Positions 21,950 through 37,414 of a stretch of DNA of 64,000 nucleotides are shown in pieces. The translations under genes and the position numbers were made by a program. This DNA comes from Candidatus Omnitrophota bacterium. GTDB taxonomy: Bacteria > Omnitrophota > Gorgyraeia > Zapsychrales > Fredricksoniimonadaceae. The stretch is taken from the NCBI GenBank assembly GCA_044225175.1, contig JBGAJA010000001.1:70994-134993 (forward strand), given 5' to 3'. The notes beneath the pieces were generated by a model, which was not told the DNA's origin, searched no databases, and was given only the letters and a program-made list of their open reading frames with translations. The number at the start of each line of letters is the position of its first letter. Position 1 is the stretch's first letter.

Positions 21950-22330
21950 ATGAGCCTTTCACAGAAGATTTGTCAATTATGGCTCCCGGTTTTTGTTTGG
22001 GCTGGCCTTATCTTTTTTCTTTCCAACATTCCTAACTTAAAGTCAGGTTTAGACGAAGATTTTATACTTAGAAAGTTCGCCCACGTTCTTGAGTATCTTA
22101 TTTTGACCTTTCTTTTATGGCGTGCATTTAAGAATTCGTTCTCCTTAAATCAAGTTTCCCTTATGGTATATCCGGCACTGATTTCTGTGCTATATGCAGC
22201 CAGCGATGAGTTTCATCAAACATTTGTTCAAGGAAGACATGGTTGTTTGAATGATGTTTTGATTGATAGCATAGGTATTTTTGGCCTTTTTCTGGCCTTA
22301 AAATTGATTCCCCGCCACTCCCAAGTGTGA
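21950..22330 (+). CDS. VanZ-like small membrane protein
   Basis: 126 aa, 3-4 TM segments with a FAHVLEYLILTF motif resembling the VanZ family. Confidence 0.5.
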   Translation: MSLSQKICQLWLPVFVWAGLIFFLSNIPNLKSGLDEDFILRKFAHVLEYLILTFLLWRAFKNSFSLNQVSLMVYPALISVLYAASDEFHQTFVQGRHGCLNDVLIDSIGIFGLFLALKLIPRHSQV

Positions 22331-22380
22331 GTTTCTCAAAATTTGCACTATATAAATATATAGTCTATACTTCCACCATC

Positions 22381-25300
22381 ATGAAAAGAGTTATCTCAGT
22401 ACTTACTTTGGCGTGTTTCTTTGCCACAGGACAGATAGGAATTTGTCCGGTTTCTGCCCAAGAAACATTTGTGCTTCCCAAGTCTGGAGAGTTTGTCCCT
22501 TTAAGCTCTAATTTTAATCCTATTGTCATGCGAGGACTTCGCATCGATCCTAAAAATCCATTTCGTTTCAGCTTCTTGGTTGATGAAGGCGATTCCAAAT
22601 TTAAAGAAAAAGATTTCAAAGAGGAAGCCCAAAAGGTCATCAAGTATTTTTTGACATCTCTGACCATCCCCGATGATGATTTATGGGTCAATTTGTCCCC
22701 CTATGAGAAAAACCGCATTATTCCTACAGAGTTTGGAAAGACCGAAATGGGCCGGGACCTTTTAGCCCAAGACTATATCCTCAAACAAATCACCGCTTCA
22801 CTCATTTATCCTGAAAAAGAGTTAGGTAAGACGTTCTGGAACAAGGTTTATAAACTAGCTAAAGAAAAATATGGCTCAGCAAATATCCCGATCAACACTT
22901 TTAATAAAGTCTGGATTGTTCCTAATCAGGCAACAGTTTATGAGCATAAGGGTACGGCTTTTGTAATGAATTATCATTTGAAGGTAATGCTGGAGGAGGA
23001 TTATTTGGCATTGAATAAACATTCTGGTGTCATTGCGAGCGAAGCGAAGCAATCTTTTAAAAAGATTGCCGCGTCGCCTTCAGTTCCTCGCAATGACACG
23101 CATAGTGTTGCCTTTCAAATCATCCGAGATATTATCCTCCCCGAACTCGAAAAAGAAGTCAACGCTGGCAAAAATTTCGCCCCCTTACATCAGATATTCT
23201 ATTCATTGATTTTGGCGACTTGGTATAAGACAAAGGTCAAACAAGATCTTTTAAATCAGGTTTATGCGGATAAGAAGAAAATTGAGGGAATTAAATACTC
23301 AACGCCAACCAGGAGACATGTTCGAAACAAGAACAACAGGAACGTGTCCCCAGGCAGCCTGCCAAGCAAAACAGGGTTGAATATGGAAGCGACCCAGAGG
23401 AACGAACCATTTGATGTTGAAACCATCTACCAACAATACCTCCAAGCCTTCAAAAAAGGTGTTTATAACTATATCAAAGATGAAATCGACCCTCTGACAC
23501 AACAGATTGTTCCCAGGAAGTACTTCTCGGGTGGGGTTGTTGGTCATGTTGCTCCTAAATCCATTCAAACGGTCGGAGCTGAGGCTCTTAAACCTGATGT
23601 TTTATCAAAGTTTCATTTAAGAAACGTTTCAGGAGATATGGCATTAATTAGCCAAAACTCATCACAAGATAATGACTTTGCTGGGGGATTAATGGGACGG
23701 TGGAAATATGAAAAAGCCATATTAAATCAGCAAAAGGGAACGTTGGTGTTACACAATGCAGTTAGGATCCCTCGTAAAGATGGCATTATTGAACCTGAAT
23801 TTTTTATTAATGGGGAGAATAAACCTCGGGACATTATTTTGAAAATACGAAAACTAAGGTCGAATGAAAGTCATATGCTTTTTAAAGCGTTATGGAGGCC
23901 AGAGGGGATCCCTCACAATGATTACAAATATAGAGAACTAACTCAGACTCTTGTTCGAGACGAATCAGCGATCAAGCATCGTATTTATGGGGCAGCAGTT
24001 GATGGTATTCCTTTTATTCGTGAAGATATTTTTTTACAGGGTAACAAAGAACAAATTCGAGAAGCTTTTGAACATGAGGTGATGGAGCTAGCAGGCTTAT
24101 CTCATGATGCCATACGACAGGCACAATATGCGGGAAATTTACGGCTATTAATCCGTGATTTATCTAGTCGAGACAAGAAAGATATTTTATCCTACTCTGC
24201 TGATGCCAATCGTAATGTGCTGCTTAAGCAATATTTTTCCACTAGGAGAGAGACTCTATTCTTGAGCCGACAGAATAAGGCTACAGCCACATTTACTACA
24301 ATTACTCCTGAATTTCGTTCAGATTCAAAGCCCAATGCTTTATACGATGGAGGACTTGGACGTTTTGGGCGGTTGATGAAAGAATTAGAAGAAAGTGATT
24401 TTATTCATATTAAGACAATCAAGGTCGTGACATCTTCTCAATTTACTCATTTACAAAGTTTATCTTTTTCCGTCAATGGTAAAGAAGTTTATATGTATTT
24501 TGAAGATCCAGAAACTTTGGTTCTCACACAAGGATTGTGGGATCAAATCAAAGAAGGAACAGAGCCAAATTTATATTTTGAAATGGCCAAAGCGCTTATT
24601 TTATTAGCTTGGGCTGGATTTCAGGGGGACTCAGTCGAAGGTTTTGCAGAAGAAATAGGTTCTGAAGAGAGTATGGTGATTTATGATTCGGACAATCAAA
24701 AAGAACAGACTAAGTTAGAAACGTTCTTTTATCTTGACCACATTAAACGTACCAAAGGACCCCTCAACGATACAGCGATTCGTTATTTAGGTTATCTTTT
24801 ATATATGTATGGTTTTGATGGTGGTCGGATGAGTATATTTTCTCCCGAAACTTTAGCAGAAGTATTAGTTAAACAGATCCAACAGATTTATGGAAGTGAA
24901 GTTAGCCTAGAGCATGCCAGGGAAGTTATAAAGTCCGATCAGTTTGACCAACATTTTTATTATAAGAGTATAGAGGATTATAAATCTAAAGAAGTCCAAG
25001 GCGACCCCGGGAGTCAAGAGCAGCTTCATGAGATTTTAAGTATTTTTGAAGATCCTTCTATCCAAGAACGCCTAACCTATGAATTAAAGCATTTTGATAC
25101 GATTTATCCAGGACAAAGATGGCGTATATCAATGATTGAGGACATACGTGGTATGGGTATGTCTGCGAATATGGGAACAAAATTGGTTTTGGATTATCCC
25201 TTGGCAGAAACTGGACATAGACCGCGTCTTTATGTGCTGCCTCCAGAAGGTGGAAAGCCCATTTATGGTCACGATTTTAAAGAATTACCTTCTTACGAAC

Positions 25301-28300
25301 TAGAAGTTAAAGGTGAGTTAGGTGAAAGAAAATCTCTTGGCAATGATTTCATGGTTATTGATGGTCAAACAAGAATGCCATTGAAATTATTTTTGGAAGA
25401 ACGTTTAGATGTTGATCTTAAACGAAGCCAGTATATGTTTGATAATTTATTTATTGTTGAAAATGGTGGAGAAATAGCTCGAAATATAAGAACAGGACAT
25501 CTAGAAATTTATTTTATTGGCAATGAAAAGAATTCCAGTGTGAATTTTGAAACAGGTATTATCAATGGTGCTAACATTGCGAGAGAAGAAGAGGAAGAGC
25601 AGGATGAGAAGGAGTCGTGGCAGCAAACATTTAATCCTTTATATGCCCCAACCGATGATCCTGATATTGAATTAGCTTTGAGGTATCATTTCCATCCGAC
25701 AAAATATAAGCCCATTATTTCTTCAGGTGATATTGATTCTAAGATTAATGAAATCTATAGAACAAACCATCAAAGCTCATCTCTGCCTGAACTCATTATC
25801 AATTTTAATCAAGAAGGACGCCTTTATTTGCCAAGGGCCAATATTAATTGGAGAAGAGCTCTCAAAGTTTTGAAGCAAATTACTAAACATCATGGCTGGG
25901 AAGATACCAGATATTTTAATGATGATGGACAAGCTGAACGTTGGGAGCGTCAAAGTTTAGAGTTTGAGAAAGAAGTGGCAAGGTTTTTTGATATTGTATC
26001 TCTGAAATTTAATGATGATGGTAGTGTGAAAGAATGGAAAATGCTTGAGAAAGCAGATTCTGCCATGGGAGCTCATGAGTCGGATCAGCCGATTATTCGT
26101 GATGGTGTGGACCAGCGTGCTTATCTAGAACAAGTACTGGGCTCTTTGCCTGGACCAAAACCGACTGTTGTGATGGCAGATGAAAAAAATAATCAACCTA
26201 TAGATCCTCAACCTTACAGGGGTGGAGGAGTATTCCAAAGAGAATTTAATACCATGCTTAATTCCCAGGATATTTTTGTTCTCTATGGTTATTGGGAATC
26301 GATTAAAAGAGTAGCGCAAGCTTTTGGAGAAACAGAGGAGAAATATCGTCAAAAGGAAAATATTAAGATTGTTTTAAATGGCCAGGGGCTGGTAGGTGTG
26401 TGGAACGTTCCAGAAGGAGTTAATGCTGTCATTCAAGAAATATTCTTAACAAAAAGTTTAACTGTGCCTGTTTTAGCCAATATTGTTCCATTGACAAGTA
26501 TCATTGATTTTTATCGTCAAAATAATCCTTTTGCCAAAGAAATATTAACAACATATATCGATAGTCTTCTTTCTCATAGTGCTGAACCTATTTTATCTTA
26601 TCCGATATTTCAATCTATTATAGATCACCTTATGAAACGTCATGACGAAGGGGAGACTCGAAAGAAAAATGCCAAAAAAAGAAGTGATCCGAATGAGTAT
26701 AAAATAGATCAAGAAAATCGAGAATTTGAAACGATTATAACTCGAGTATTGAGATTATTGACACCCGAGACTTTGAGGGGCTATTTACGTCAGTTTGTGA
26801 TTGATCGTCATTTAGATAGCGGTAGTATTAGAGAATATTTTCCAGTTATTTTGCAAGATCATAATGAAGAAAGAAAAGTCCAAGATATGTTGTGGGACAT
26901 TTATCTCGATGCGCGTAATAATCCTCAACAGAACATATTATTTGCCAAAACACTCATCCATCATCTGAGTTCAAGTGTAGGAAATTCTCAAGCCGTGGGA
27001 TGGATTTATCGTATTTTGTCAGAGGGCAATTTAGAGCATTCCCACAAAGCCATTCGTATTTTATTAGGAATGAACATTAATAAAGATGACCAAAGACAAT
27101 TGTTTTATCTGATAAAAACTACCAGCCCTTATCAAGATATTCTAGCTGCATATACCTTGGCCCACGTTAAAATATTTGGTATGGAGACTCAAACAACCCG
27201 AGGAGGTTCGAGTAATTTCGAACGTGATGGTCTCATGTCTCTTCAATCGGAGGAAACGCGTAATATGTATTACTATCTTATGAATATCGATGCGATCTTA
27301 AAGAAAGGAGGGGTCGCTGATCGTGATGTCGACCATAGGATTTTTCAATATGCAGCAGCACTTGATGAATATGCCGAATATCCAGGTCAGTTTGGTCATA
27401 CATGGTTTTCTAATTTACGACAGAAAATTCATAGGGCAGTTAATCGCAATGATCTGTATCGTATTGAAGGAATTCTGCGTTTTTGGCAGAATCTTGACCC
27501 GCAAGTTTTTGCCAGGATCTCAGAAAAAAGGAAGTTTCCATGGGAGACATCTACAGAAATTGCCAAAGATTTCGATAAAGATGATTACTCTAGGATCTTG
27601 AACAATCTATTGGCTTCTCTTATTCATCAAGGTGACATTAATCCTGGTTTAGATATGATTGAACAGCTTACGCATCTTGAGAAAAATTATGTCATAGAAA
27701 AATTAAAAGAGGCAAATTTAAAAGAAGATAATATTAGGGTTGAGAAAGTCGAACATATGTTGAATTTATATTTTGCATTGAGTCAAAAATTTACAACCAA
27801 TATTCCCAGCATTATTCAGGGAATTAATGACCTGCAGGAGAGCAAAGCAAATTACCTTGGATTTTGTCGTCAAGAGTATAGTGCTTTAAAGAGAGCTTTG
27901 AAAGGTCAGGATGAGCAAGTGGTTCTTGAAGCGGTCGTCAACTTACGGTTGGCCATTAGAAATGATTACTTAACTCATCCTATGCCAAACGAAGATGATC
28001 GAGAAAGCCGTGACAATGAATCTTATAGAAGAGAGAAGCTTGGTCAATTGGACCATGATTTGCATATTTTGGGTCGTTATTATTTAAATAATGTGTTTAG
28101 TCAAACTATTCAACATGTGCTTACCCTGGATGACATTCGATCTAACACGAGTGTTTTAATTTCTGTAGCTAAGTTCATCCAATCTGAAGGATTAGGAGGA
28201 GTAGATTTAGAACAATTTATAGAACAAATGCAGGAAGGTAATCTGAGTCATTCCCAATGGCATGATCTCATTCGTGCTTTACAGACACAAGTTTTAAAAA

Positions 28301-30381
28301 TAGTTCAACAGATCGATAAAAACATACGTTTTGTCACCCCACATATGCTGCAAGCAGAAAATTCTTTGGATATTCGTTGGCAAGGTCTTTCGAAATTTGA
28401 AAAAATCCCTACAGGACATGGGTGGGACAGAGAAGTTTTGACTGAGCAGAGTAAAAAAGACATAGAAAATGCTTTGGTCGATGAATTAATTCGAGAAGCT
28501 GGATTGGATGTTTTTAAAGCCTCTTTAACTCAATTTGATCAAATTCTTGAAAATCAGCCTGCTGAGCAAGAATCCGCACAGCCTTTACCCGTAGATACTA
28601 CTACTCCTCATGCTTTAGATCGTTACTTCTTACATTTTGGGCAAGGTAATATATCTTCCACGCAGAGACTTCTTCTATCTTTATGGAGCAAAAAAGGCTT
28701 GAATTTGGTCCGTATGAGTCAAAGAGGCATTGCTGTTCCTCCTGGCGTTGTTGTGAGTTCAGAGCTCATGACCCGTCCTGATATTATTCATTCCGAGCCT
28801 TTTAAGAAGAAGGTCATGACTGAGATAGACGAGCTACGCAAGCATTCGAAATATCCGGATTTGAAATTACTTTTATATGCCCGTAGTGGTTCTGCATTTA
28901 TGTTGCCTGGGCTCTTGAGTACTATTGCCAATATTGGGATGAATGACAAAGAAGCTAGTGAATTAGAAGCAAGCACAAAAGACACTTGGTTTGCCTATGA
29001 CACTTATGCCTCTTTTATCCGTTCTTTTGGAATGTATGTGTTTGGGATTGAGGAGAAGTTCTTCCAAGAAGTCTTTAATATGTACACCAAGGACAAGGTC
29101 TCTGGAGAACGAATGAAGCAGGTGGTTGAACAATACAAGGAAGTCATTGGTAAGCATGGGGGCGGTAAACAAATACCTGAAACTATGATTGATCAAGTCA
29201 TTATGGCTATGGAAGCTGTCTACGCTTCCTGGGATTCACCCAATGCCAAAGAATACCGTCAAAGGCATCGTATCTCTCAATCATGGGGCACAGTTGTCAT
29301 TCTCCAAAAAGGTGTATTTGGTAATATTCAAAAGACGCATGATGGAAAGATTTCAGGAGCTGGAAGTGCCAGTTTAATGACAGCGCCAGATGGACAGCCA
29401 ATCATTCAAGGGGAGTTTCGATATCAAGCTCAAGGAGACCAAATCATGAGCGGGGCTGATCAAAATACTGTTTCTTTAAACCAAAGAGAATCATCTCTCC
29501 AAAATGGGCAAACATTTGAACAGCTTAATCCAGAGCTTTATAAGAAAGTCCTTCAAGAAGCCCTACGGTTAAAACAAATCTTTGGCCATGACCAATTGAT
29601 TGAATTTGTCATTGAGCGGGGGGATGTTTGGATCACGCAAAGCAATGATGACTTTATGAGAGAAGACTTTCCTGAATTTGCTGAGCAAACGACAAATGGG
29701 CCTATTGTTCGCGGCAAAGGATTAAGCGGGGGCGCTGTTCGTGGATGGGCTGCTCATACAGTGGAAAAAGCCACGGAATTAATGGCCCGATATCAGCATT
29801 TGAAACAAACGAGCCCTCAAGAAGTTAAAGATGTGGATGGTGTGATTTTACTTCTAGATCGCATTAATCCTGAAATGATCAGCCAAATCCCAAAAGGGGT
29901 TCATATTCTAGCCAAAAAGCTTTCCGTCCATGCTGTATCATTGGCCCAAGAGTCAGGTATTAGTGTTGTAGCTGAAGTTCCAGATGACAAAATGATTTTT
30001 GATATCGCAAAGAAAGAATGGGTCATTGCAGGGCGCTTTATATCTGATGGCCAGGTCTTGAGTATGGATGGCCACAGAAATCAACTTGCCTATCATCAAA
30101 GCGGAAATATTTATTTGGGAAGTGTTCCTATTGCTAAAGAAGAAGAGGTAAATCAAGCTTCTACTGATGATCACGCCATGAATAGTCAACAAACACCTGG
30201 CGGTATCGATTTAACCTCTAAAAGGTATAAGATTCTCATCAAGAGCGATGGTCAGGAGATAGCAATGGATTTTAATCCCGCCATGATCCATGATTTAAAT
30301 TTCGACGGCCTAGAGTTCCACATTAACCACATACAACCCATACCAAATCCCCGAGAATTTTTGCTAGAAATCTCTAAATAA
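22381..30381 (+). CDS. Giant secreted multidomain protein (~2,666 aa) with C-terminal PPDK-type ATP-grasp and PEP-utilising phosphohistidine (swivel) domains
   Basis: The ORF opens at 22327; the likely start is ATG 22381, followed by the signal peptide MKRVISVLTLACFFATGQIGICPVSAQE. The C-terminal ~650 aa show motif-level matches to the PPDK N-terminal nucleotide-binding domain (GIAVPPGVVV; ARSGSAFMLPGLLSTIANIGMND…FAYDTYASFIRSFG; TVVILQKGVFGN…GAGSA) and to the His-swivel domain (LSVHAVSLAQESGISVV; His codon 29929-29931). Confidence 0.8.
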   Translation: MKRVISVLTLACFFATGQIGICPVSAQETFVLPKSGEFVPLSSNFNPIVMRGLRIDPKNPFRFSFLVDEGDSKFKEKDFKEEAQKVIKYFLTSLTIPDDDLWVNLSPYEKNRIIPTEFGKTEMGRDLLAQDYILKQITASLIYPEKELGKTFWNKVYKLAKEKYGSANIPINTFNKVWIVPNQATVYEHKGTAFVMNYHLKVMLEEDYLALNKHSGVIASEAKQSFKKIAASPSVPRNDTHSVAFQIIRDIILPELEKEVNAGKNFAPLHQIFYSLILATWYKTKVKQDLLNQVYADKKKIEGIKYSTPTRRHVRNKNNRNVSPGSLPSKTGLNMEATQRNEPFDVETIYQQYLQAFKKGVYNYIKDEIDPLTQQIVPRKYFSGGVVGHVAPKSIQTVGAEALKPDVLSKFHLRNVSGDMALISQNSSQDNDFAGGLMGRWKYEKAILNQQKGTLVLHNAVRIPRKDGIIEPEFFINGENKPRDIILKIRKLRSNESHMLFKALWRPEGIPHNDYKYRELTQTLVRDESAIKHRIYGAAVDGIPFIREDIFLQGNKEQIREAFEHEVMELAGLSHDAIRQAQYAGNLRLLIRDLSSRDKKDILSYSADANRNVLLKQYFSTRRETLFLSRQNKATATFTTITPEFRSDSKPNALYDGGLGRFGRLMKELEESDFIHIKTIKVVTSSQFTHLQSLSFSVNGKEVYMYFEDPETLVLTQGLWDQIKEGTEPNLYFEMAKALILLAWAGFQGDSVEGFAEEIGSEESMVIYDSDNQKEQTKLETFFYLDHIKRTKGPLNDTAIRYLGYLLYMYGFDGGRMSIFSPETLAEVLVKQIQQIYGSEVSLEHAREVIKSDQFDQHFYYKSIEDYKSKEVQGDPGSQEQLHEILSIFEDPSIQERLTYELKHFDTIYPGQRWRISMIEDIRGMGMSANMGTKLVLDYPLAETGHRPRLYVLPPEGGKPIYGHDFKELPSYELEVKGELGERKSLGNDFMVIDGQTRMPLKLFLEERLDVDLKRSQYMFDNLFIVENGGEIARNIRTGHLEIYFIGNEKNSSVNFETGIINGANIAREEEEEQDEKESWQQTFNPLYAPTDDPDIELALRYHFHPTKYKPIISSGDIDSKINEIYRTNHQSSSLPELIINFNQEGRLYLPRANINWRRALKVLKQITKHHGWEDTRYFNDDGQAERWERQSLEFEKEVARFFDIVSLKFNDDGSVKEWKMLEKADSAMGAHESDQPIIRDGVDQRAYLEQVLGSLPGPKPTVVMADEKNNQPIDPQPYRGGGVFQREFNTMLNSQDIFVLYGYWESIKRVAQAFGETEEKYRQKENIKIVLNGQGLVGVWNVPEGVNAVIQEIFLTKSLTVPVLANIVPLTSIIDFYRQNNPFAKEILTTYIDSLLSHSAEPILSYPIFQSIIDHLMKRHDEGETRKKNAKKRSDPNEYKIDQENREFETIITRVLRLLTPETLRGYLRQFVIDRHLDSGSIREYFPVILQDHNEERKVQDMLWDIYLDARNNPQQNILFAKTLIHHLSSSVGNSQAVGWIYRILSEGNLEHSHKAIRILLGMNINKDDQRQLFYLIKTTSPYQDILAAYTLAHVKIFGMETQTTRGGSSNFERDGLMSLQSEETRNMYYYLMNIDAILKKGGVADRDVDHRIFQYAAALDEYAEYPGQFGHTWFSNLRQKIHRAVNRNDLYRIEGILRFWQNLDPQVFARISEKRKFPWETSTEIAKDFDKDDYSRILNNLLASLIHQGDINPGLDMIEQLTHLEKNYVIEKLKEANLKEDNIRVEKVEHMLNLYFALSQKFTTNIPSIIQGINDLQESKANYLGFCRQEYSALKRALKGQDEQVVLEAVVNLRLAIRNDYLTHPMPNEDDRESRDNESYRREKLGQLDHDLHILGRYYLNNVFSQTIQHVLTLDDIRSNTSVLISVAKFIQSEGLGGVDLEQFIEQMQEGNLSHSQWHDLIRALQTQVLKIVQQIDKNIRFVTPHMLQAENSLDIRWQGLSKFEKIPTGHGWDREVLTEQSKKDIENALVDELIREAGLDVFKASLTQFDQILENQPAEQESAQPLPVDTTTPHALDRYFLHFGQGNISSTQRLLLSLWSKKGLNLVRMSQRGIAVPPGVVVSSELMTRPDIIHSEPFKKKVMTEIDELRKHSKYPDLKLLLYARSGSAFMLPGLLSTIANIGMNDKEASELEASTKDTWFAYDTYASFIRSFGMYVFGIEEKFFQEVFNMYTKDKVSGERMKQVVEQYKEVIGKHGGGKQIPETMIDQVIMAMEAVYASWDSPNAKEYRQRHRISQSWGTVVILQKGVFGNIQKTHDGKISGAGSASLMTAPDGQPIIQGEFRYQAQGDQIMSGADQNTVSLNQRESSLQNGQTFEQLNPELYKKVLQEALRLKQIFGHDQLIEFVIERGDVWITQSNDDFMREDFPEFAEQTTNGPIVRGKGLSGGAVRGWAAHTVEKATELMARYQHLKQTSPQEVKDVDGVILLLDRINPEMISQIPKGVHILAKKLSVHAVSLAQESGISVVAEVPDDKMIFDIAKKEWVIAGRFISDGQVLSMDGHRNQLAYHQSGNIYLGSVPIAKEEEVNQASTDDHAMNSQQTPGGIDLTSKRYKILIKSDGQEIAMDFNPAMIHDLNFDGLEFHINHIQPIPNPREFLLEISK
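23027..23099. repeat. Palindromic mini-element copy A (GTGTCATTGCGAG…CTCGCAATGACAC), embedded in frame within the giant ORF
   Basis: Imperfect hairpin with the same termini as copies B and C; translated in the host frame as …GVIASEAKQSFKKIAASPSVPRNDTH…. Confidence 0.7.
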
Positions 30382-30428
30382 AGGTCTGAGCTTCGAAAGT
30401 TGACGCTCGTTACCTTTTATGTTACTTT

Positions 30429-31145
30429 ATGACCCTTATGGTTAAAGAAAATGTGTTAAAAGTTCTCTCGCAGCTTCAGGATGCTTGTCGTGAAGCTGGA
30501 CGAAATCCTCAAGAAGTGACACTTGTTGCAGTCACGAAATATGCTCCTTTAGAGGCTATCCAGGATTCCATTGATGCGGGTATTTTGAATATCGCTGAAA
30601 ATAGAGTCCAGGAAGCTGAAAAAAAATTTCCACTTCTATTAGCCAAAAATCCTCAAGTACGTTCCCATATCATTGGACATTTACAGACAAATAAGGCCAA
30701 AGATGCCATCAAAGTCTGTTCTTTGATCCAATCTGTAGACAGTTTGAAGCTAGCCCAAGAAATTGAAAAGCAAGCTGCTAAACTTAATCAAGTTACCGAA
30801 ATATTAGTTCAATTCAATACCGCCCGTGAAGAACAGAAGTTTGGGGCCCAATCAGAGGAAGCGGCTGCTTTGATTGAAGCGATTTCCAAATTAGAACATG
30901 TAGCCATTAAAGGATTCATGGGAATGGCCCCTTTTACTGAAGACCAGGGGATTATCCGTAAGACATTCGCGGATTTGCGTGCGATTCGTGACAAAATTCA
31001 TTCACAGTTCTCAGGTCATCCTCGAATCGATACGCGAATTTTGTCGATGGGGATGAGTGGAGACTACAAAATAGCTATTCAAGAAGGTTCAACCATGATT
31101 CGAGTGGGGAGCGCCATCTTTAAAGAGGTCATGCAAAATGCTTAA
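30429..31145 (+). CDS. yggS: YggS-family PLP homeostasis protein
   Basis: VAVTKYAP…HIIGHLQTNKAK…SMGMSGDYKIAIQEGSTMIRVGSAIF: canonical YggS/PROSC motifs. Confidence 0.85.
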   Translation: MTLMVKENVLKVLSQLQDACREAGRNPQEVTLVAVTKYAPLEAIQDSIDAGILNIAENRVQEAEKKFPLLLAKNPQVRSHIIGHLQTNKAKDAIKVCSLIQSVDSLKLAQEIEKQAAKLNQVTEILVQFNTAREEQKFGAQSEEAAALIEAISKLEHVAIKGFMGMAPFTEDQGIIRKTFADLRAIRDKIHSQFSGHPRIDTRILSMGMSGDYKIAIQEGSTMIRVGSAIFKEVMQNA

Positions 31146-31935
31146 AACGACTATAGGAATTATTGGCGGGGGAAATATGGGGGAGGCTTTAATCAAAGGT
31201 CTCCATAAATCTTATGCCTTACATGTTACAGAAGCTGACCAAAAGCGTACACAATACTTAAAGAAGCACTATCGATTAACAATTGCAGACATTGATGCCA
31301 CCATCCAAAAATCCCATGTCCTGATTCTTGCTGTGAAACCTCAAGATATGCAAACGGTGCTGTCCTATGTGAAGGTGGGAAATCAATTTTCAAAGAAGGA
31401 TCAGTTGGTTATTTCGATTGCGGCAGGTTTAACAACGAGATTTTTTGAGAAACAATTAGGGAAATCTCGCGTTGTGCGAACAATGCCTAATATGCCCGCT
31501 TTGATTGGAGAGGGAATCACAGGGATATGTCCAGGAAAGTATGCAACTCCTTCTGACCTAAAGCTTGCTCAAAAGCTTTTAGAGACAATTGGAGAGACCG
31601 TTATTGTTAAAGAATCGATGATTGATGCAGTGACTGCTGTTTCAGGAAGCGGCCCGGCGTATGTATTTTTATTTGTGGAACAATGGATGGCTGCGGCTAA
31701 GAAGCTTGGGTTTAATGATAACCAAGCAAAGCAATTGGTCTATAAGACATTGCTTGGAAGTGCACATCTTCTTGAAAAAAGCGAATTTTCAGCTGGAACT
31801 TTACGTGAGAAAGTTACCTCCAAAGGTGGGACTACAGCTGCTGCCTTAGATGTGTTTGCTAAGGGTAAGTTTGATTCACTCATGAACAGTGCTCTTGGTG
31901 CGGCGAAGAAGAGAGCTAAAGAGTTAGCTAAATAA
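31138..31935 (+). CDS. proC: Pyrroline-5-carboxylate reductase
   Basis: IGIIGGGNMGEALIKG Rossmann motif plus ProC C-terminal dimerisation region; 8-nt overlap with yggS. Confidence 0.85.
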   Translation: MLKTTIGIIGGGNMGEALIKGLHKSYALHVTEADQKRTQYLKKHYRLTIADIDATIQKSHVLILAVKPQDMQTVLSYVKVGNQFSKKDQLVISIAAGLTTRFFEKQLGKSRVVRTMPNMPALIGEGITGICPGKYATPSDLKLAQKLLETIGETVIVKESMIDAVTAVSGSGPAYVFLFVEQWMAAAKKLGFNDNQAKQLVYKTLLGSAHLLEKSEFSAGTLREKVTSKGGTTAAALDVFAKGKFDSLMNSALGAAKKRAKELAK

Positions 31936-31940
31936 TTTGT

Positions 31941-32029
31941 GTGTCATTGCGAGGAGCAAAGCGACGAAGCAATCCTTTTAGAATGCTTAAAAGATTGCTT
32001 CGGCCTAAAAGCAGGCCTCGCAATGACAC
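31941..32029. repeat. Palindromic mini-element copy B (intergenic proC-mtnP)
   Basis: 89-bp imperfect hairpin gtgtcattgcgaggagcaaagcgacgaagcaatc…gattgcttcggcc…cctcgcaatgacac; the minus-strand ORF 31928-32218 overlapping it is probably spurious. Confidence 0.75.
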
Positions 32030-32047
32030 CTGTGATCGGAGAAAATC

Positions 32048-32908
32048 ATGGCTATCGTTGGGGTGATTGGTGGAAGTGGACTTTATCAGATGGAGGGGAT
32101 CAGTAATCTTAAGGAGGTTACGCTTAAGACTCCTTTTGGGAATCCGTCCGATGCTTATTTCACTGGCGAAATCCAAAAGACCAAGGTGGTGTTCTTGCCT
32201 CGGCATGGGCGTGGACATGCTATTTCTCCCTCCGAGATTAACTATAGGGCTAATATCTATGGAATGAAAGAACTTGGAGTTGAAGCCATCCTGTCTGTTT
32301 CAGCCTGCGGAAGTCTTCGTAAGAAATATAAACCAATGGATTTTGTGATTCCGGATCAGTTCTTGGATCGTACGCGTAAGGGAAGACTAGATACATTTTT
32401 TACTGATGGCATTGTGGCCCATGTGGCTTTTGCGGATCCGATCAGTCCAGAGATTGCAGACATTATTGAATCCTCAGCTAAAGCTTTAGGAATCAAAGCT
32501 CATCGTGGGGGAACCTACGTCAACATGGAAGGTCCTCAGTTCTCGACGAAGGCTGAGTCTAATTTGTATCGTAAGTGGGGAATGGATATTATTGGAATGA
32601 CGAATTTGACTGAGGCCAAGCTTGCTCGTGAAGCTGAGATTTCTTATGCGACTTTGGCTGCTGTCACAGATTATGATTGCTGGCATCCCGAACATGATTC
32701 GGTGACTGTTGAAATGATTATCCATAATTTGCATGAGAATGTAGGTAATGCGAAGAAAATTTTAAGTGCTGCTATTCCTCAGGTAGGAAAATTAAAGAAG
32801 TTTTCAGCTTCAGAAGCGTTGAAATTTGCTATCATCACAAGTCGCGATAAGATTAGCGCGCAAAAGAAGAAAGAACTCAATGTCATCATCGGAAAATACA
32901 TCAAATAG
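32048..32908 (+). CDS. mtnP: S-methyl-5'-thioadenosine (purine nucleoside) phosphorylase
   Basis: IGGSGLY…FLPRHGRGH…GMTNLTEAKLAREAEISYATLAAVTDYDCWH: MTAP-type PNP signature. Confidence 0.8.
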   Translation: MAIVGVIGGSGLYQMEGISNLKEVTLKTPFGNPSDAYFTGEIQKTKVVFLPRHGRGHAISPSEINYRANIYGMKELGVEAILSVSACGSLRKKYKPMDFVIPDQFLDRTRKGRLDTFFTDGIVAHVAFADPISPEIADIIESSAKALGIKAHRGGTYVNMEGPQFSTKAESNLYRKWGMDIIGMTNLTEAKLAREAEISYATLAAVTDYDCWHPEHDSVTVEMIIHNLHENVGNAKKILSAAIPQVGKLKKFSASEALKFAIITSRDKISAQKKKELNVIIGKYIK

Positions 32909-35705
32909 CGTTGATTACCAAAAGACTTTAAATTTGCCCAAGACAGATTTTGCCATGAAAGCAAATTTGACCCAGCGTGAGCCTCAGTTTTTGGCAAAAT
33001 GGGAGAGTGATAAGATCTATCAACGTCTTCGTGAGAAATCCAAAGGCAAGAAGCCTTTTATTCTTCATGATGGACCTCCCTATGCTAATGGTCATATTCA
33101 TATAGGCCATGCTCTCAATAAAATTCTTAAAGATATTATAGTTCGTTACAAGTCCATGAAAGGCTTTGATGCTTTGTATGTTCCTGGCTGGGACTGCCAT
33201 GGGTTACCTATTGAACATCAATTGCTCAAAGACTTAAAGGCAAAGAAGGGGGACTTTGATACGGTTGTCTTTCGTAAGAAAGCCCATGATTATGCTATGA
33301 AGTTTGTTGGTATTCAGCGTGATGAATTTAAGCGCCTGGGAATTTGGGCACAATGGGACAATCCCTATTTAACCTTGGCTCCGGGTTATGAATTTTGGAT
33401 TCTTAAATCTTTAGCTACTTTGGTTGATAAAGGCTATGTGTACCGCAGTTTAAAGCCTGTGAACTGGTGTTTTAGCTGTGAAACAGCCTTAGCTGAGGCA
33501 GAGGTAGAACATGAAAATAAAGAGTCTCCAACTGTATTTGTGAAGTTCAAAGTGAACAATCCTCAAGTACTGGCAATGCCTAGTGGTCCGTCGGTATCTC
33601 TACTTATTTGGACAACTACTCCATGGACTTTATTAGCCAATGTGGCCGTTGCCACCCATGCCGATTTTACTTATGTTTTAGCAGATTTAGGTCATGAAGT
33701 TGTCATTGTAGAAAAGACCCTTTCAGAAGCTATCTTTGCTAAGGCCAATGTGCAGGCTAAGATCATTAAAGAAGTTAAGGGTAAGGATTTAACTGGGCTC
33801 ACATACACACATCCTTTTGATAAGCTAAAAGATTGTCCTGTTGTAAATGTCGATTATGTCACCAAAGAAGATGGTACTGGTCTTGTTCATACGGCTCCTG
33901 GTCATGGCCAGGAAGATTATCAAACTGGCTTAAAGTACAAATTGCCTATTGTGATGCCTGTTAACAGCAAGGGTGTTTTTAATGAAGAGGGCGCTCCATT
34001 TACAGGTCAACATGTCTTTAAAGCTAATGAAGTCATTATTGCCAATCTTAAAGAGAGAGGTTTATTATTTTCAACTGAGAATATTCAGCATTCTTATCCT
34101 CATTGCTGGCGTTGTAAAAATCCTGTGATTTTTCGTGCCACAGAACAATGGTTTTTGAATGTGTCTCATCATGGTCTGCGAGAAAAGCTTAAGAGTTCGA
34201 TTGAGAATGATGTTCAGTGGGTCCCGCCAGCTGGGCGTGAACGTATTTTGGGAATGGTGGCTACTCGTCCGGATTGGTGTTTGTCCCGCCAAAGACTCTG
34301 GGGGGTTCCTATCCCAGCTTTAGTCTGTCAAGGCTGCCAGGGAGAGCATAAGCTTTTTGTTAAGGTTATTGAACATTTGGCTGGAATTGTCAAAACAGCA
34401 GGCAGCGATGTTTGGTTTGAACGTGATGTGAAGGATTTAATTCCTCCTGGCTTCAAATGTCCTGATTGTGGGGGAGATTCATTCGAGAAAACTCATGATA
34501 TTCTGGATGTTTGGTTTGATTCTGGCGTTAGCCATCAAGCGGTCTTTCATACGCTCATCAATTTGCCTTTACCTGCGGATCTGTATTTGGAAGGCTCCGA
34601 TCAGCATCGCGGATGGTTCCAATCATCTTTGATTCCTTCTGTTGCCATAGATGGCAAAGCGCCTTATCGCCAAGTCTTGACCCATGGTTTTGTAGTGGAT
34701 GGGCAAGGACGTAAGATGTCCAAATCTCTAGGAAATGTCATGTCTCCGCAAGATATGATTAAAGATAATGGGGCTGAGATTCTCCGCTTGTGGGTTGCTT
34801 CCAGCTCTTACAACGATGATGTACGAATCTCCAAAGAAATCATTGATCGTTTGGTTGACTCTTACCGTAAGATTCGTAACACCGTGCGTTATCTTTTGGG
34901 TAATTTAAGCGACTTTAAGCCTGATACAGATCTTTTAGACTACACCAAAATGCTAGACCTAGATCGCTGGGCTTTAAACCGTTTGGCACATGTGATTGAA
35001 GAGGTAGATAGAGCTTACGAAACCTATGATTTTGTAAAGGTTTATAAGACAATTCATAGCTTTTGCAATGAGGATCTTTCAACCATTTATCTTGACATCC
35101 TAAAAGACCGCTTGTATACTTGCCGCACTTTATCAGTCGAAAGAAAGTCGGCCCAGAGCGTTTTATATTATATACTTGATAGTCTGATGCGTATGATTGC
35201 TCCAATGATGGTTGTAACCTCCCAGGAGATATTTGACATAAGTCCTTCAAAATCTTCAGGTTCAAAAGAACCTAGTGTTCATCTGTTAGATTGGCCAACG
35301 GTTGATCCGCAGTGGAAGAATCAGCCTATTGAAGAGAGGTATAAGGTTCTTTTAGACTTCCGGTCCTTTGTTCTTAAAGCTTTGGATGAACAAAGAAAGC
35401 TAGGGGTCATTGGAAGCGGATTGCAAGCTAAAGTCATCATCAAAAGTGCAAGCAATCGCGATTTAGAGTATTTAAAGAGCTTTCAAGCAGATTTAGCCAC
35501 TTATTTTATAGTTTCAAGTGTGGAAATTGAACAAGTATCAAGTGTTTCACAGGGTTTAAACGATTATTTCTCTCAAACATCAATTGAAGTACAAGCAGCT
35601 GATGGGGTCAAATGCGCCCGCTGCTGGAATTATAAGACTGATGTCGGAGAAAACAAAAAACATCCAAGCTTGTGTGTGCGTTGTTCACAAGTGGTGGAGA
35701 ATTAA
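32880..35705 (+). CDS. ileS: Isoleucine--tRNA ligase (bacterial type with C-terminal zinc finger)
   Basis: HIGH (PYANGHIHIGH) and KMSKS motifs; C-terminal CARCWNYK…CVRCSQ Zn cluster. The ORF opens at 32826; the likely start ATG 32880 overlaps the mtnP end. Confidence 0.9.
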   Translation: MSSSENTSNSVDYQKTLNLPKTDFAMKANLTQREPQFLAKWESDKIYQRLREKSKGKKPFILHDGPPYANGHIHIGHALNKILKDIIVRYKSMKGFDALYVPGWDCHGLPIEHQLLKDLKAKKGDFDTVVFRKKAHDYAMKFVGIQRDEFKRLGIWAQWDNPYLTLAPGYEFWILKSLATLVDKGYVYRSLKPVNWCFSCETALAEAEVEHENKESPTVFVKFKVNNPQVLAMPSGPSVSLLIWTTTPWTLLANVAVATHADFTYVLADLGHEVVIVEKTLSEAIFAKANVQAKIIKEVKGKDLTGLTYTHPFDKLKDCPVVNVDYVTKEDGTGLVHTAPGHGQEDYQTGLKYKLPIVMPVNSKGVFNEEGAPFTGQHVFKANEVIIANLKERGLLFSTENIQHSYPHCWRCKNPVIFRATEQWFLNVSHHGLREKLKSSIENDVQWVPPAGRERILGMVATRPDWCLSRQRLWGVPIPALVCQGCQGEHKLFVKVIEHLAGIVKTAGSDVWFERDVKDLIPPGFKCPDCGGDSFEKTHDILDVWFDSGVSHQAVFHTLINLPLPADLYLEGSDQHRGWFQSSLIPSVAIDGKAPYRQVLTHGFVVDGQGRKMSKSLGNVMSPQDMIKDNGAEILRLWVASSSYNDDVRISKEIIDRLVDSYRKIRNTVRYLLGNLSDFKPDTDLLDYTKMLDLDRWALNRLAHVIEEVDRAYETYDFVKVYKTIHSFCNEDLSTIYLDILKDRLYTCRTLSVERKSAQSVLYYILDSLMRMIAPMMVVTSQEIFDISPSKSSGSKEPSVHLLDWPTVDPQWKNQPIEERYKVLLDFRSFVLKALDEQRKLGVIGSGLQAKVIIKSASNRDLEYLKSFQADLATYFIVSSVEIEQVSSVSQGLNDYFSQTSIEVQAADGVKCARCWNYKTDVGENKKHPSLCVRCSQVVEN

Positions 35706-35720
35706 CCGGAGATAAGTTCA

Positions 35721-36128
35721 ATGCCTGGAAAAGTCATTAAAAGAGTCAAAATCAAGATTAATCCAAAGTTAGAAGTTTATAGAAAGCTTCTGATTAAAGC
35801 TAAAGATCAAATTGTGGGGGACATTAGAAATCTTTCCAATGACAACGATGGCAGTGCTAATGATCGAAGCGGAGACGTCTCTGGTCACGCACTTCACATG
35901 GCTGATGTGGCAACGGATATGTATGATCGTGAATTTGCAATGGGATTAGCTGCCAACGATCGCGAACTTTTAACTCGTATTCAAGATGCAATGATGCGTA
36001 TACAAGAAGGTACTTTTGGTGTTTGTGAACAATGCAAGAAACCAATCGCCGCCACACGTCTAAAGGCTCTTCCTTATGTTACAACCTGCTTAAAATGTCA
36101 GGAACAAATTGAATCTAAGCGCAGATAA
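35721..36128 (+). CDS. dksA: DksA/TraR-family C4 zinc-finger protein
   Basis: C-terminal CEQCKKPI…CLKCQ four-Cys finger; a coiled-coil-like N-terminus with an acidic stretch. Confidence 0.7.
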   Translation: MPGKVIKRVKIKINPKLEVYRKLLIKAKDQIVGDIRNLSNDNDGSANDRSGDVSGHALHMADVATDMYDREFAMGLAANDRELLTRIQDAMMRIQEGTFGVCEQCKKPIAATRLKALPYVTTCLKCQEQIESKRR

Positions 36129-36131
36129 CAC

Positions 36132-36608
36132 ATGAATGATTTCAAGCGCTCTAAAATTGATATTCTTATTTTTGTCGGTGGTGTCTTAGGGACGATCATT
36201 TTAGACAGATTCAGCAAGATCTTTTTTTCCAATCTCCTAGATGTTAATGATTCCCTTATTCTCATCAAAAACGTTTTCCATTTTACTCTAGTTCATAATA
36301 CAGGAATTGCTTTCGGACTTTTTAAAGACCAAGGTTTTGTGTTTTTTATCATTCCTGTTGTTTTAACAGGGCTCCTCATTTACAACATTTATTACTACAA
36401 GCACGCAGATCAATTAAGCCGTATTTATATTGCAGCTTTTTCTTTAATTTTAGGAGGGGCAATTGGAAATTTAATTGATCGAATTACATTAGGCTATGTG
36501 ATTGATTTTATTGATTTTCGTGTCTGGCCGGTGTTTAATATTGCGGACAGTGCCATTACAATCGGGGCGGCCATTATTTTGTTGAAGTGTATTCCATCAG
36601 TCAAATAA
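36132..36608 (+). CDS. lspA: Lipoprotein signal peptidase (SPase II)
   Basis: NTGIAFGLF and FNIADSAITIGA conserved boxes; 4 TM. Confidence 0.85.
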   Translation: MNDFKRSKIDILIFVGGVLGTIILDRFSKIFFSNLLDVNDSLILIKNVFHFTLVHNTGIAFGLFKDQGFVFFIIPVVLTGLLIYNIYYYKHADQLSRIYIAAFSLILGGAIGNLIDRITLGYVIDFIDFRVWPVFNIADSAITIGAAIILLKCIPSVK

Positions 36609-36612
36609 ATAA

Positions 36613-36682
36613 GTGTCATTGCGAGCGAAAGCGAAGCAATCTTAAAGATTGCTTCAGTCGCTTTGCTCCTTCGCAATGACAC
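36613..36682. repeat. Palindromic mini-element copy C (intergenic lspA-lgt)
   Basis: gtgtcattgcgagcgaaagcgaagcaatcttaaagattgcttcagtcgctttgctccttcgcaatgacac; the minus-strand ORF 36494-36697 overlapping it is probably spurious. Confidence 0.75.
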
Positions 36683-36691
36683 AAAATTCCT

Positions 36692-37414
36692 ATGCATCCT
36701 ATTCTTTTCAATATAGGTCCAGTCACAGTATTTTCTTATGGCGTGATGATTGCTCTTGCAGTCATTGTCTGCGCGTTTCTTTTAAGTCGAGATGCCAAAG
36801 TTTATAATATTCCTGCCGAAACCATTCATGATTTGATGTTCATGGTCGTTGCTTGTGGAATTTTAGGGGCACGAGTTTTTTATATTATTTTGACTTGGGA
36901 TTACTTTAAAGATAATCCCATGGAAATGATTATGTTAACTCATGGCGGTCTCGCATGGCAGGGTGGATTGATTGCTGGGATGCTCTCTGGATTTTGGTTT
37001 GTTCGTCTTAAGAAGTTAAAACTAAGGTTTGTTTTAGATTTAGTTGCTCCGTATGTTGCTTTAGGACAAGCCATTGGCCGTCTTGGTTGCTTTTTTAATG
37101 GTTGTTGTTATGGAAAGCCAGCTCCCTGGGGAATATATTTTCCCGTTCATCACGACCGTCTTCATCCGACTCAACTGTATGAAACAGCTGGATTGTTTGT
37201 GGCATTCTTGATTCTTAAGTATGCTCAGAAAAAACCTCATCATGCAGGTATGATTTTTGTTCTTTATTTATGGTTGGGGGCAATTGAACGTTTTATTGTG
37301 GAATTCTTCCGCGCAGACCATGATCAACTATGGTATGGCTTAAGTTTATTTCAGTACATTTCGCTAGGGATCTTTAGTATAGGGCTAGTGCTTTTAATGC
37401 GGTTTAGAAAATGA
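36692..37414 (+). CDS. lgt: Prolipoprotein diacylglyceryl transferase
   Basis: N-terminal TM with the MHPILFNIGPVTVFSYG start; GRLGCFFNGCCYG signature-like box. Confidence 0.85.
   Translation: MHPILFNIGPVTVFSYGVMIALAVIVCAFLLSRDAKVYNIPAETIHDLMFMVVACGILGARVFYIILTWDYFKDNPMEMIMLTHGGLAWQGGLIAGMLSGFWFVRLKKLKLRFVLDLVAPYVALGQAIGRLGCFFNGCCYGKPAPWGIYFPVHHDRLHPTQLYETAGLFVAFLILKYAQKKPHHAGMIFVLYLWLGAIERFIVEFFRADHDQLWYGLSLFQYISLGIFSIGLVLLMRFRK

Follow-up and report, generated by a model that had tools for sequence, protein, structure and literature searches.

Two studies have described short palindromic repeats that are closely related to the element examined here. Di Nocera, De Gregorio, and Rocco (2013, BMC Genomics 14:522; PMC3733652) defined the CGTC-tagged superfamily of repetitive extragenic palindromic (REP) sequences, which comprises families CGTC-1 to CGTC-4. 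The units have a CGTC or TGTC tag (variant CCTC), an 8- to 9-bp stem starting with AT, a 4- to 5-nt loop, and a CCA tail. They are mostly found as head-to-head dimers, heterodimers are common, and the dimers are located between unidirectional or convergent genes or, when they are intragenic, are read in frame as 20 to 30 amino acids (aa). CGTC-1 corresponds to the Neisseria dRS3 repeat and the Rickettsia palindromic element (RPE) RPE-6, and CGTC-4 corresponds to RPE-4. No RAYT transposase gene flanked by CGTC units was found, and the authors concluded that the superfamily had no dedicated transposase. Chenal et al. (2025, Nat Commun 16:2388; PMC11893778) reported that the Neisseria Transformation Sequence (NTS; CGTCATTCCCGC...GCGGGAATCYRG) and other Ssn-related motifs (SRM) flank homologues of ssnA, which code for single-domain GIY-YIG proteins (cd10448); a motif was located near 71% of the homologues and on both sides of 42% of them. 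SsnA bound the hairpin only as single-stranded DNA (ssDNA) of one strand, cut upstream of the hairpin and likewise only in ssDNA of one strand, did not bind RNA, and reduced transformation by NTS-flanked DNA, and the NTS-ssnA-NTS layout was likened to IS200/IS605 and REP/RAYT. Here, we analyzed a 64-kb stretch of DNA from a Candidatus Omnitrophota bacterium (the window), which carries three copies (A, B, and C) of a palindromic repeat that we refer to as the ATTGCGAG family. Our results suggested that these copies are probably Ssn-related, CGTC-type hairpin dimers of a non-autonomous kind, which a Ssn nuclease encoded in trans would recognize.

A comparison of the two papers indicated that the CGTC REPs and the NTS/SRM repeats are the same repeats under two names; Chenal et al. 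did not cite the catalogue of 2013. The earlier view that CGTC repeats have no dedicated enzyme is superseded, and the association between ssn genes and repeats that we recovered had already been published (PMC11893778). The ATTGCGAG family is individually described in neither paper. Full-text literature searches for the DNA and peptide strings of the repeat returned only unrelated primers, and a full-text search for GIY-YIG together with repetitive extragenic palindromic returned no match. To a repeat class that was catalogued in 2013 without an enzyme and tied to Ssn nucleases in 2025, the window adds a very widespread sequence family outside the definitions of both papers. It also extends the Ssn system to Omnitrophota and other little-studied phyla. 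In addition, one intergenic site is found in nature filled, empty, or with an ssn gene, and at least three repeat families have entered a single protein loop in frame. The question of whether and how Ssn enzymes spread their motifs is made testable by these data.

The copies and their units are listed below in window coordinates, with the strand on which each unit is read.

23027..23099, no strand assigned: copy A, a 73-bp head-to-head dimer inside a 2684-aa open reading frame (ORF), read in frame as G-VIASEAKQSFKKIAASPSVPRND-T
23028..23056, plus strand: copy A left unit, short arm, with TGTC tag, ATTGC stem, GAGCGAAGCGAA segment, GCAAT stem, and CTT tail
23062..23098, minus strand: copy A right unit, long arm, minus-strand reading TGTCATTGCGAGGAACTGAAGGCGACGCGGCAATCTT
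31941..32029, no strand assigned: copy B, an 89-bp head-to-head dimer in the proC/mtnP gap, both arms of the long type
31942..31976, plus strand: copy B left unit, TGTCATTGCGAGGAGCAAAGCGACGAAGCAATCCT
31991..32028, minus strand: copy B right unit with a GC mini-hairpin cap, TGTCATTGCGAGGCCTGCTTTTAGGCCGAAGCAATCTT
36613..36682, no strand assigned: copy C, a 70-bp head-to-head dimer in the lspA/lgt gap, right terminus with one mismatch
36614..36643, plus strand: copy C left unit, short arm, TGTCATTGCGAGCGAAAGCGAAGCAATCTT
36645..36681, minus strand: copy C right unit, long arm, TGTCATTGCGAAGGAGCAAAGCGACTGAAGCAATCTT

Six matches to the 13-mer GTGTCATTGCGAG or its complement were found in the window (at most 2 mismatches) when 0.87 were expected, and none of 100 shuffled sequences reached six. 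Five of the six termini were exact matches to GTGTCATTGCGAG or CTCGCAATGACAC; the exception was the right end of copy C, TTCGCAATGACAC, with its single mismatch. The inner core GCGAAGCAATC...GATTGC (GAAGCAATC/GATTGCTTC) was present in all three copies. Each copy was predicted to fold into a long imperfect hairpin, both as RNA of either strand (z = -6.6 to -8.9) and as DNA (z = -7.5 to -9.3, the lowest value being that of copy A). These results confirmed what a preliminary description of the window had proposed, namely, three copies at these positions with shared inverted termini, an internal core, and a hairpin in each. The assignment of copies B and C to the proC-mtnP and lspA-lgt gaps was also correct, and copy A proved to be a true copy that is read through in frame without a stop in a tolerant loop. 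The arms were unequal in length within each copy, and by that asymmetry copy B was inverted relative to copies A and C; the arm types differed in A and C. Window scans for further copies, for other elements with terminal inverted repeats, and for other GTCAT...ATGAC palindromes found none beyond A, B, and C.

Species-representative genomes were then examined with the pattern GTCATTGCGAG-N40-70-CTCGCAATGAC, which yielded at least 120 loci and in which the outer 11-mers were fixed by the search. The ATTGCGAG family was present in at least 120 genomes of at least eight phyla and in at least 120 viral contigs, with the same termini and inner GAAGCAATC/GATTGCTTC core. The hosts included Alphaproteobacteria (Bradyrhizobium and Sphingomonadales), Gammaproteobacteria, Deltaproteobacteria, Bacteroidota (Pedobacter, Mucilaginibacter, and Flavobacterium), Chloroflexota, Patescibacteria, Planctomycetota, and Cyanobacteria, and plasmids of Novosphingobium, Methylosinus, and Methylocystis also carried the pattern. 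The element is therefore a genuine dispersed palindromic repeat, as had been proposed, but it is not a lineage-specific family because the same sequence occurs over many phyla.

The 126 full copies at the 120 genome loci shared one layout: (C/T)GTC, ATTGCGAG, a variable segment, G-N-N-GCAATC(C/T), an apical spacer, and the mirror image of this arrangement. The inner GCAAT core was common to all of them and lies beyond the 11-mers fixed by the search. Position -1 was C in 67% and T in 28% of the copies, and position +1 was G in 72% and A in 25%, which corresponds to a YGTC tag. The three bases past GCAAT were CCA in 55% and CTC in 22% of 448 arms. All six window units had a TGTC tag, and their tails were CTT or CCT. 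Within a unit, the ATTGC/GCAAT stem formed 5 Watson-Crick pairs and was followed by a segment of 12 to 22 nt, which consisted of a GAG/GAA internal loop and a GCGAAGC or GC-hairpin cap. The variable segment was either CGAAGC-like or a GC-rich mini-hairpin, and the sides of the mini-hairpin covaried between copies. Tight dimers with spacers of 3 to 25 nt predominated, and solo halves were also found (L123 at 3159, L127 at 3252, and L126 at 12958). Because halves occur alone, the half of about 30 nt is the module, and the 70- to 90-bp element is a head-to-head dimer of it.

No target-site duplication was detected in the 126 copies or at filled versus empty sites. This result bears on the suggestion that the element is a miniature inverted-repeat transposable element (MITE), that is, a deletion derivative of an insertion sequence (IS) with a DDE transposase that recognizes the terminal inverted repeats. 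In its perfect 13-bp terminal inverted repeats, its small size, and its high copy number, the window element resembles MITEs such as the Neisseria Correia elements (NEMIS) and cyanobacterial Nezha, which sometimes also yield co-transcribed RNA hairpins. However, MITEs of this kind have target duplications and originate from DDE insertion sequences, and neither holds for the window element. No IS with the same ends was found. ORF clustering around the 126 copies (within 400 bp and over the whole 8-kb loci) yielded no conserved partner, no transposase, and no GIY-YIG gene; the clusters were the repeat's own translations (SLRAKRSNP..., HCERSEAIQ..., VIASEAKQS..., and LLRRFAPRNDG) and generic families. 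Halves that occur alone, and identical termini in at least eight phyla, are also not expected of a MITE. The term MITE-like, taken strictly, did not survive these comparisons, and we consider a classical MITE highly improbable.

A different explanation is that the 70- to 90-nt hairpin is selected by the host on the mRNA, where it would act as a stabilizer, a processing site for RNase III/E, or an attenuator. Copies B and C are located between co-directional, probably co-transcribed genes, and their RNA folds are very stable. In addition, tandem and convergent gene contexts were favored (42 and 20, respectively, versus 6 divergent), and in tandem contexts the short arm was 5' on the sense strand in 23 of 30 informative copies (crude gene calls; 120 loci). 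In contrast, it is the sequence, beyond the structure, that is conserved across phyla, and solo halves and in-frame coding copies exist. The two arms were identical at four variable bases in 130 of 224 dimers versus 120 +/- 4 after shuffling, and this nearly random assortment argues for recognition at the level of the unit and against a selected single long hairpin. The element had no Rfam match at gathering or permissive E-value thresholds, terminator prediction made no call at B or C, where a T-run is absent, and SsnA does not bind RNA (PMC11893778). We therefore regard an RNA element as unlikely, and RNA effects may be a by-product of the repeat. Among simpler candidates, an intrinsic terminator at B and C was rejected for want of a terminator call; an integron attC site, a CRISPR, and a tRNA-like element were rejected solely on the absence of sequence resemblance.

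The sites of copies B and C were compared in related genomes. Copy B starts 5 nt past the proC stop codon and ends 18 nt ahead of the mtnP ATG, and copy C is 4 nt past the lspA stop codon and 9 nt ahead of the lgt ATG. The gene order proC-mtnP-ileS-dksA-lspA-lgt was kept in about 80 metagenomic relatives, the closest of which had IleS proteins that were 67 to 71% identical to that of the window. The lspA/lgt gap was empty and 9 to 15 nt long in L129, L131, and L135, and the window gap is 13 nt without copy C. The proC/mtnP gap was empty in L130 and L154. Since related genomes have these sites empty, copies B and C are insertions. Other unit types were found in the same gaps: L128 carried a ATCCTGAG-family unit and L133 a CGTC-1 unit between lspA and lgt, and L133 also carried a full ATTGCGAG dimer in a third gap, directly past the mtnP stop codon. 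The lspA/lgt gap of L132 (4023-4085) contained an unrelated, perfect palindrome of about 50 nt, AAGTGACACACAACTTAATTC...GAATTAAGTTGTGTGTCACTT, which belongs to another hairpin repeat family. In the case of copy C, the terminal AATGAC places an ATG at 36677, in frame and 15 nt upstream of the lgt start at 36692, and no Shine-Dalgarno sequence was visible between copy C and that start; copy C may supply the real lgt start or change the initiation of lgt translation.

The proC/mtnP junction was also found in a third state. In L128, this gap contains a 529-nt insert with, in order, six tandem truncated unit heads, a full unit (CGTCATTCTGAGCGAAGCGAAGAATC), a 97-aa ORF with a Pfam GIY-YIG domain (60 bits), and an inverted unit that starts at the stop codon. 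Omnitrophota in general had many ssn homologues, mostly on contigs shorter than 3 kb, and units of identical architecture bracketed ssn genes in five independent Omnitrophota contexts (L128, L208-217, L218-227, L291, and L292). In L291 and L292, ssn was located in the oppA/oppB and leuC/leuD gaps, respectively. In L208-L227, two ssn variants were located inside integrative elements with a D5-type primase-helicase, an excisionase-like helix-turn-helix protein, and a large serine recombinase; these integrative elements are one route for the horizontal spread of ssn and its units. The stems in the four contexts other than L128 were ATTCT/AGAAT or ATCCT/AGGAT, which, with ATTGC/GCAAT, represent compensatory changes. 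The ATTGCGAG family itself adjoined ssn in L407, which was located by tblastn over loci fetched with a short-gap form of the search pattern. This locus has a full unit, a 98-aa GIY-YIG ORF (55 bits; 45% identical to a 94-aa Neisseria protein), and a truncated right arm, beyond which lie two additional complete dimers. Thus, ssn genes are physically bracketed by the ATTGCGAG family and its sister families.

Similar arrangements were observed outside Omnitrophota. On plasmids and chromids, tblastn found ssn homologues in exactly the taxa known for CGTC repeats, and the gene was adjoined by the species' own unit type in 13 of 14 inspected regions; Photobacterium had none beside the gene. The units in these 14 regions were CGTC-1, CGTC-3, or other types, and none was of the ATTGCGAG family. 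Specifically, units bracketed ssn, usually in inverted orientation, in Sinorhizobium meliloti, Rhizobium, and Neorhizobium (CGTC-3 type) and in Sphingobium, Novosphingobium, Aeromonas, Planktothrix, and Spirosoma. In Azospirillum, ssn was located between sufB and sufC with full CGTC-1 dimers on either side, and the Neisseria ssn gene had dRS3 units on both sides in a different orientation, without an inverted bracket. A crude test detected the bracket in 27 of 44 homologue loci on viral contigs, and scans of viral contigs for ATTGCGAG ends spaced 320 to 380 nt apart found dimer clusters but no ssn gene.

The identity of the bracketed gene is relevant to a further alternative, in which the repeats form a REP/REPIN system mobilized by a RAYT, an IS200/IS605-like HUH tyrosine transposase. 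The two kinds of system have much in common: short hairpin units arranged as inverted doublets that form a larger hairpin, extragenic and without target duplication, a single small gene flanked by its own repeats, non-autonomous copies, and recognition of ssDNA hairpins. They differ in that REP/RAYT systems have a GTAG tag and a HUH tyrosine transposase, whereas the units here have a YGTC tag and accompany a GIY-YIG nuclease. Moreover, REP families are lineage-specific, and the ATTGCGAG sequence is shared across phyla. The bracketed gene was a GIY-YIG gene in every case examined, although no search aimed at RAYT genes was made, and the 2013 survey likewise reported no RAYT flanked by CGTC units (PMC3733652). 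Mobilization by a RAYT is, in our view, very unlikely.

The closest relatives of the window element were the CGTC REPs and the SRM/NTS repeats. With the CGTC REPs it shares the YGTC tag, a stem starting with AT, the CCA tail, head-to-head dimers, heterodimers, gene contexts, in-frame dimers, and the absence of a transposase nearby. It differs from them in that the ATTGCGAG family is none of the four described families, does not have an 8- to 9-bp stem with a 4- to 5-nt loop, and has a host range that reaches Omnitrophota, Patescibacteria, Chloroflexota, Planctomycetota, and Cyanobacteria. The intragenic peptides reported in 2013 were VIPAKAGI (CGTC-1), VIAGLDPAI (CGTC-3), VIPWLDHGI (CGTC-4), and Kosmotoga and Sulfurovum peptides (CGTC-2), and none resembled VIASEAKQS (PMC3733652). 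The features shared with SRM/NTS were a (C/T)GTC located 5' of a hairpin that begins with AT and ends with ...AT-CC/CT, directional units of about 30 nt that are inverted around ssn, hundreds of copies, and a spread across phyla. In contrast to the plain 8- to 9-bp stem of those repeats, the units here have a 5-bp stem, a GAG/GAA internal loop, and a GCGAAGC or GC-hairpin cap; ATTGCGAG copies are mostly tight dimers, and ssn is absent from the window. The comparison with Rickettsia palindromic elements that had been drawn for copy A turned out to be more than an analogy because RPE-4 and RPE-6 belong to the same CGTC-tagged superfamily (PMC3733652). Like these elements, copy A is a palindrome inserted in frame in an ORF, adds a short peptide, and is absent from the closest homologues of its host protein. 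The unit sequence and the host phylum are different, and the RPE-6 and RPE-4 peptides (VIPAKAGI and VIPWLDHGI) correspond to other units. To our knowledge, RPE-1 and the other longer RPEs are unrelated in sequence to the window element.

Taken with the published Ssn work, these findings make it likely that the window copies are non-autonomous, Ssn-related hairpin dimers. A unit has the form 5'-(C/T)GTC-ATTGC-GAG-[CGAAGC or GC mini-hairpin]-GAA-GCAAT-C(C/T)N-3' and a length of about 30 to 40 nt, and a copy is an inverted, head-to-head pair of such units. By analogy with the pairs that have been characterized in Neisseria, N. elongata, N. wadsworthii, and Wolbachia, each unit would be the strand-specific ssDNA recognition site of a cognate, single-domain GIY-YIG Ssn protein of about 95 aa, which would bind the hairpin and nick a few nucleotides 5' of the tag. 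The cognate ssn gene would have another location in the genome, where it would typically have such a unit on either side, and the gene-less dimers of the window would be the non-autonomous form of a unit-ssn-unit module. They appear to have landed at permissive places, in two cases within an operon, a few bases past a stop codon, and in the third case in a protein loop that tolerates differences in length. No gene was linked to the repeat in cis. Recognition of the copies by the organism's own Ssn would be in trans; the copies may be spread by Ssn or by host replication and repair, and a host role such as the restriction of incoming ssDNA is conceivable.

Several observations weigh against this explanation. 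No ssn homologue was found within the 64-kb window, ssn was not enriched among the neighbors of the repeat in the 120 repeat-centered genome loci, and only one ssn locus (L407) was adjoined by ATTGCGAG units, with its right arm interrupted. Ssn is not known to move these repeats. None of the window units matched the SRM string HGTCWYN(0-2)YYVSBRHN(0-5)WNVSBRGN(0-2)RNCYNB, but this string, as transcribed, also missed the ssn-flanking units of L128, L208, and S. meliloti; because it misses bona fide ssn-flanking units, it is a narrow search tool and not a definition. The predicted structure of a single unit was the 5-bp ATTGC/GCAAT stem with a GCGAAGC cap, and its nearest-neighbor fold was only -2.7 kcal/mol (z = 0.4), compared to -9 kcal/mol (z = -5.5) for the Neisseria unit. 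Nearest-neighbor parameters probably undervalue GCGAAGC mini-hairpins and G.A pairs. Finally, the orientation bias of 23 versus 7 copies noted above is not predicted by a Ssn model, and it may reflect replication-strand or RNA-level effects.

A bolder proposal is that Ssn GIY-YIG nucleases represent a new mechanistic class of true ssDNA transposases, or of homing enzymes, whose hairpin units may re-use landing pads. In Omnitrophota, the occupants of the same short operon gaps, and of one loop in a hugely expanded protein family, varied between genomes or paralogues and were different unit families, gene-less dimers, or the ssn module. In such a scheme, elements with GTCAT...ATGAC ends would replace one another at a target that is regenerated. 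If this were true, replacement in the loop would act like the exchange of cassettes and would diversify, in frame, a peptide segment that is exposed. We consider this proposal speculative and rather doubtful.

Some ssn genes and their units were located by themselves in tight housekeeping operons or between defense genes. These were L233 (sufB/sufC), L292, L291, L229 (gltA/lpxB), and L232 (MmeI/DrmA). These loci resembled small selfish insertions, and the sites of copies B and C are of this type. Arrays in which truncated unit heads are repeated in tandem were observed next to ssn genes or dimers, namely, in L128 (1276-1413, six copies of CGTCATTCTGACACTTATAGTTGTT with a 25-nt period), in L232 (downstream of ssn), in L062 (2729-2790), in L076 (553-720), and at the N-terminus of protein P0236. 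These arrays, which are described in neither PMC3733652 nor PMC11893778, point to abortive events that recurred at the tag or at the cut site.

The repeats also have practical consequences for assemblies and annotation. The repeats fragment assemblies of this organism, which is present in the samples SRR28480385 and SRR28480388: two independent short-read assemblies of the window genes (Logan contigs L121 and L122) ended exactly within copies B and C, and a repeat with many copies would be expected to have this effect. They also seed spurious hypothetical proteins in databases (SLRGAKRRSN..., HCEERSDEAI..., VIASEAKQS..., and LLRFARND...). The window contains two ORFs of this kind.

31928..32218, minus strand: spurious antisense ORF of 96 aa, whose C-terminus ...SLRGLLLGRSNLLSILKGLLRRFAPRNDTQII is copy B translated
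36494..36697, minus strand: spurious antisense ORF of 67 aa, which runs through copy C

The element-derived segments of these ORFs (SLRG... and LLRRFAPRND) matched peptides that recur beside copies in unrelated genomes. Since the same peptides were the sole clustering ORFs beside those copies, both antisense ORFs are spurious, in agreement with the preliminary description.

Copy A differs from the other two copies in that it is located inside a gene. The features that are relevant to this insertion are as follows.

22327..30381, plus strand: host gene of copy A, a 2684-aa ORF with an N-terminal region of about 400 aa from a family that is greatly expanded in Candidatus Omnitrophota and a C-terminal PPDK_N-like ATP-binding region
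23005..23118, plus strand: hypervariable loop of the N-terminal domain, flanked by the conserved motifs KVMLEEDY and QIIRDIILP, in which copy A landed

The in-frame translation of copy A reads ...KHSGVIASEAKQSFKKIAASPSVPRNDTHSVAF..., and the copy adds 24 codons. The N-terminal domain bears a signal peptide, had no Pfam match, and had more than 3,000 detectable relatives, which were from Omnitrophota wherever they were named; across these relatives, its many C-terminal fusion partners included kinases, GGDEF, glycosyltransferases, peptidases, and TPR domains. The loop varied from 15 to 64 aa over the family, and about one-third of the loops in 110 members examined contained recognizable repeat-derived peptides. 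The repeat families were ATTGCGAG (about 13 members, in two frames, complete or partly deleted), CGTC-1 (VIPAKAGI, about 10 members), and ATCCTGAG (VILSEAKDL, about 9 members), and the repeats were confirmed at the DNA level in five members. The window protein and its paralogues in L123 and L124 had the element in the same reading frame with similar junctions (GGT GTC (A/G)TT ... AAT GAC A), even though the paralogues are only about 50% identical. Repeat-bearing members were scattered in a rough neighbor-joining ordering.

It had been proposed that copy A marks a recently remodeled, tolerant region of the protein. The tolerance was borne out, but the recent remodeling was not. The presence of the same family at the same site in paralogues that are about 50% identical, and of other families in other paralogues, indicated that the loop is an old site that has been used repeatedly or over a long time. 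The pattern may reflect recurrent insertion, replacement between families through the shared GTCAT...ATGAC ends, or conversion from dispersed copies.

The paralogues also raise the question of whether the resemblance of copy A to the repeat is a coincidence in ordinary coding sequence, or whether the loop is the origin of the repeat. Paralogues share the segment in the same frame, and most empty loops read G-I-x-S-E...(K/N)-D-T, which is reminiscent of GVIASE...ND. On the other hand, both 13-mers of copy A are exact matches, its inner core is complete, and its DNA fold has z = -9.3; these features refute a chance resemblance. The closest homologues of the window protein (P0001, P0002, P0003, and P0005) do not have the element, and the repeat occurs in phyla that do not have this protein family. 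For the preliminary description, the same segment in orthologues would have argued for ordinary coding sequence; such sharing was partly observed, but the retained DNA palindrome and exact termini indicate that copy A is not such a sequence, and an origin by chance or from the loop is barely credible.

A second variable loop of the same ORF (23296-23400) encodes TPTRRHV...NVSPGSLPSKTGLNMEATQRN. Its DNA was a decayed palindrome (GGAGACATGTTC / GAACGTGTCCCC) with a fold z of only -1.4. The same peptide module (QPGDM / PTRGHV...NVSPSTLPSELGLNAKAPQGN) was found in the first loop, which is that of copy A, in about 10 paralogues, and it looks like another module that has moved between loops.

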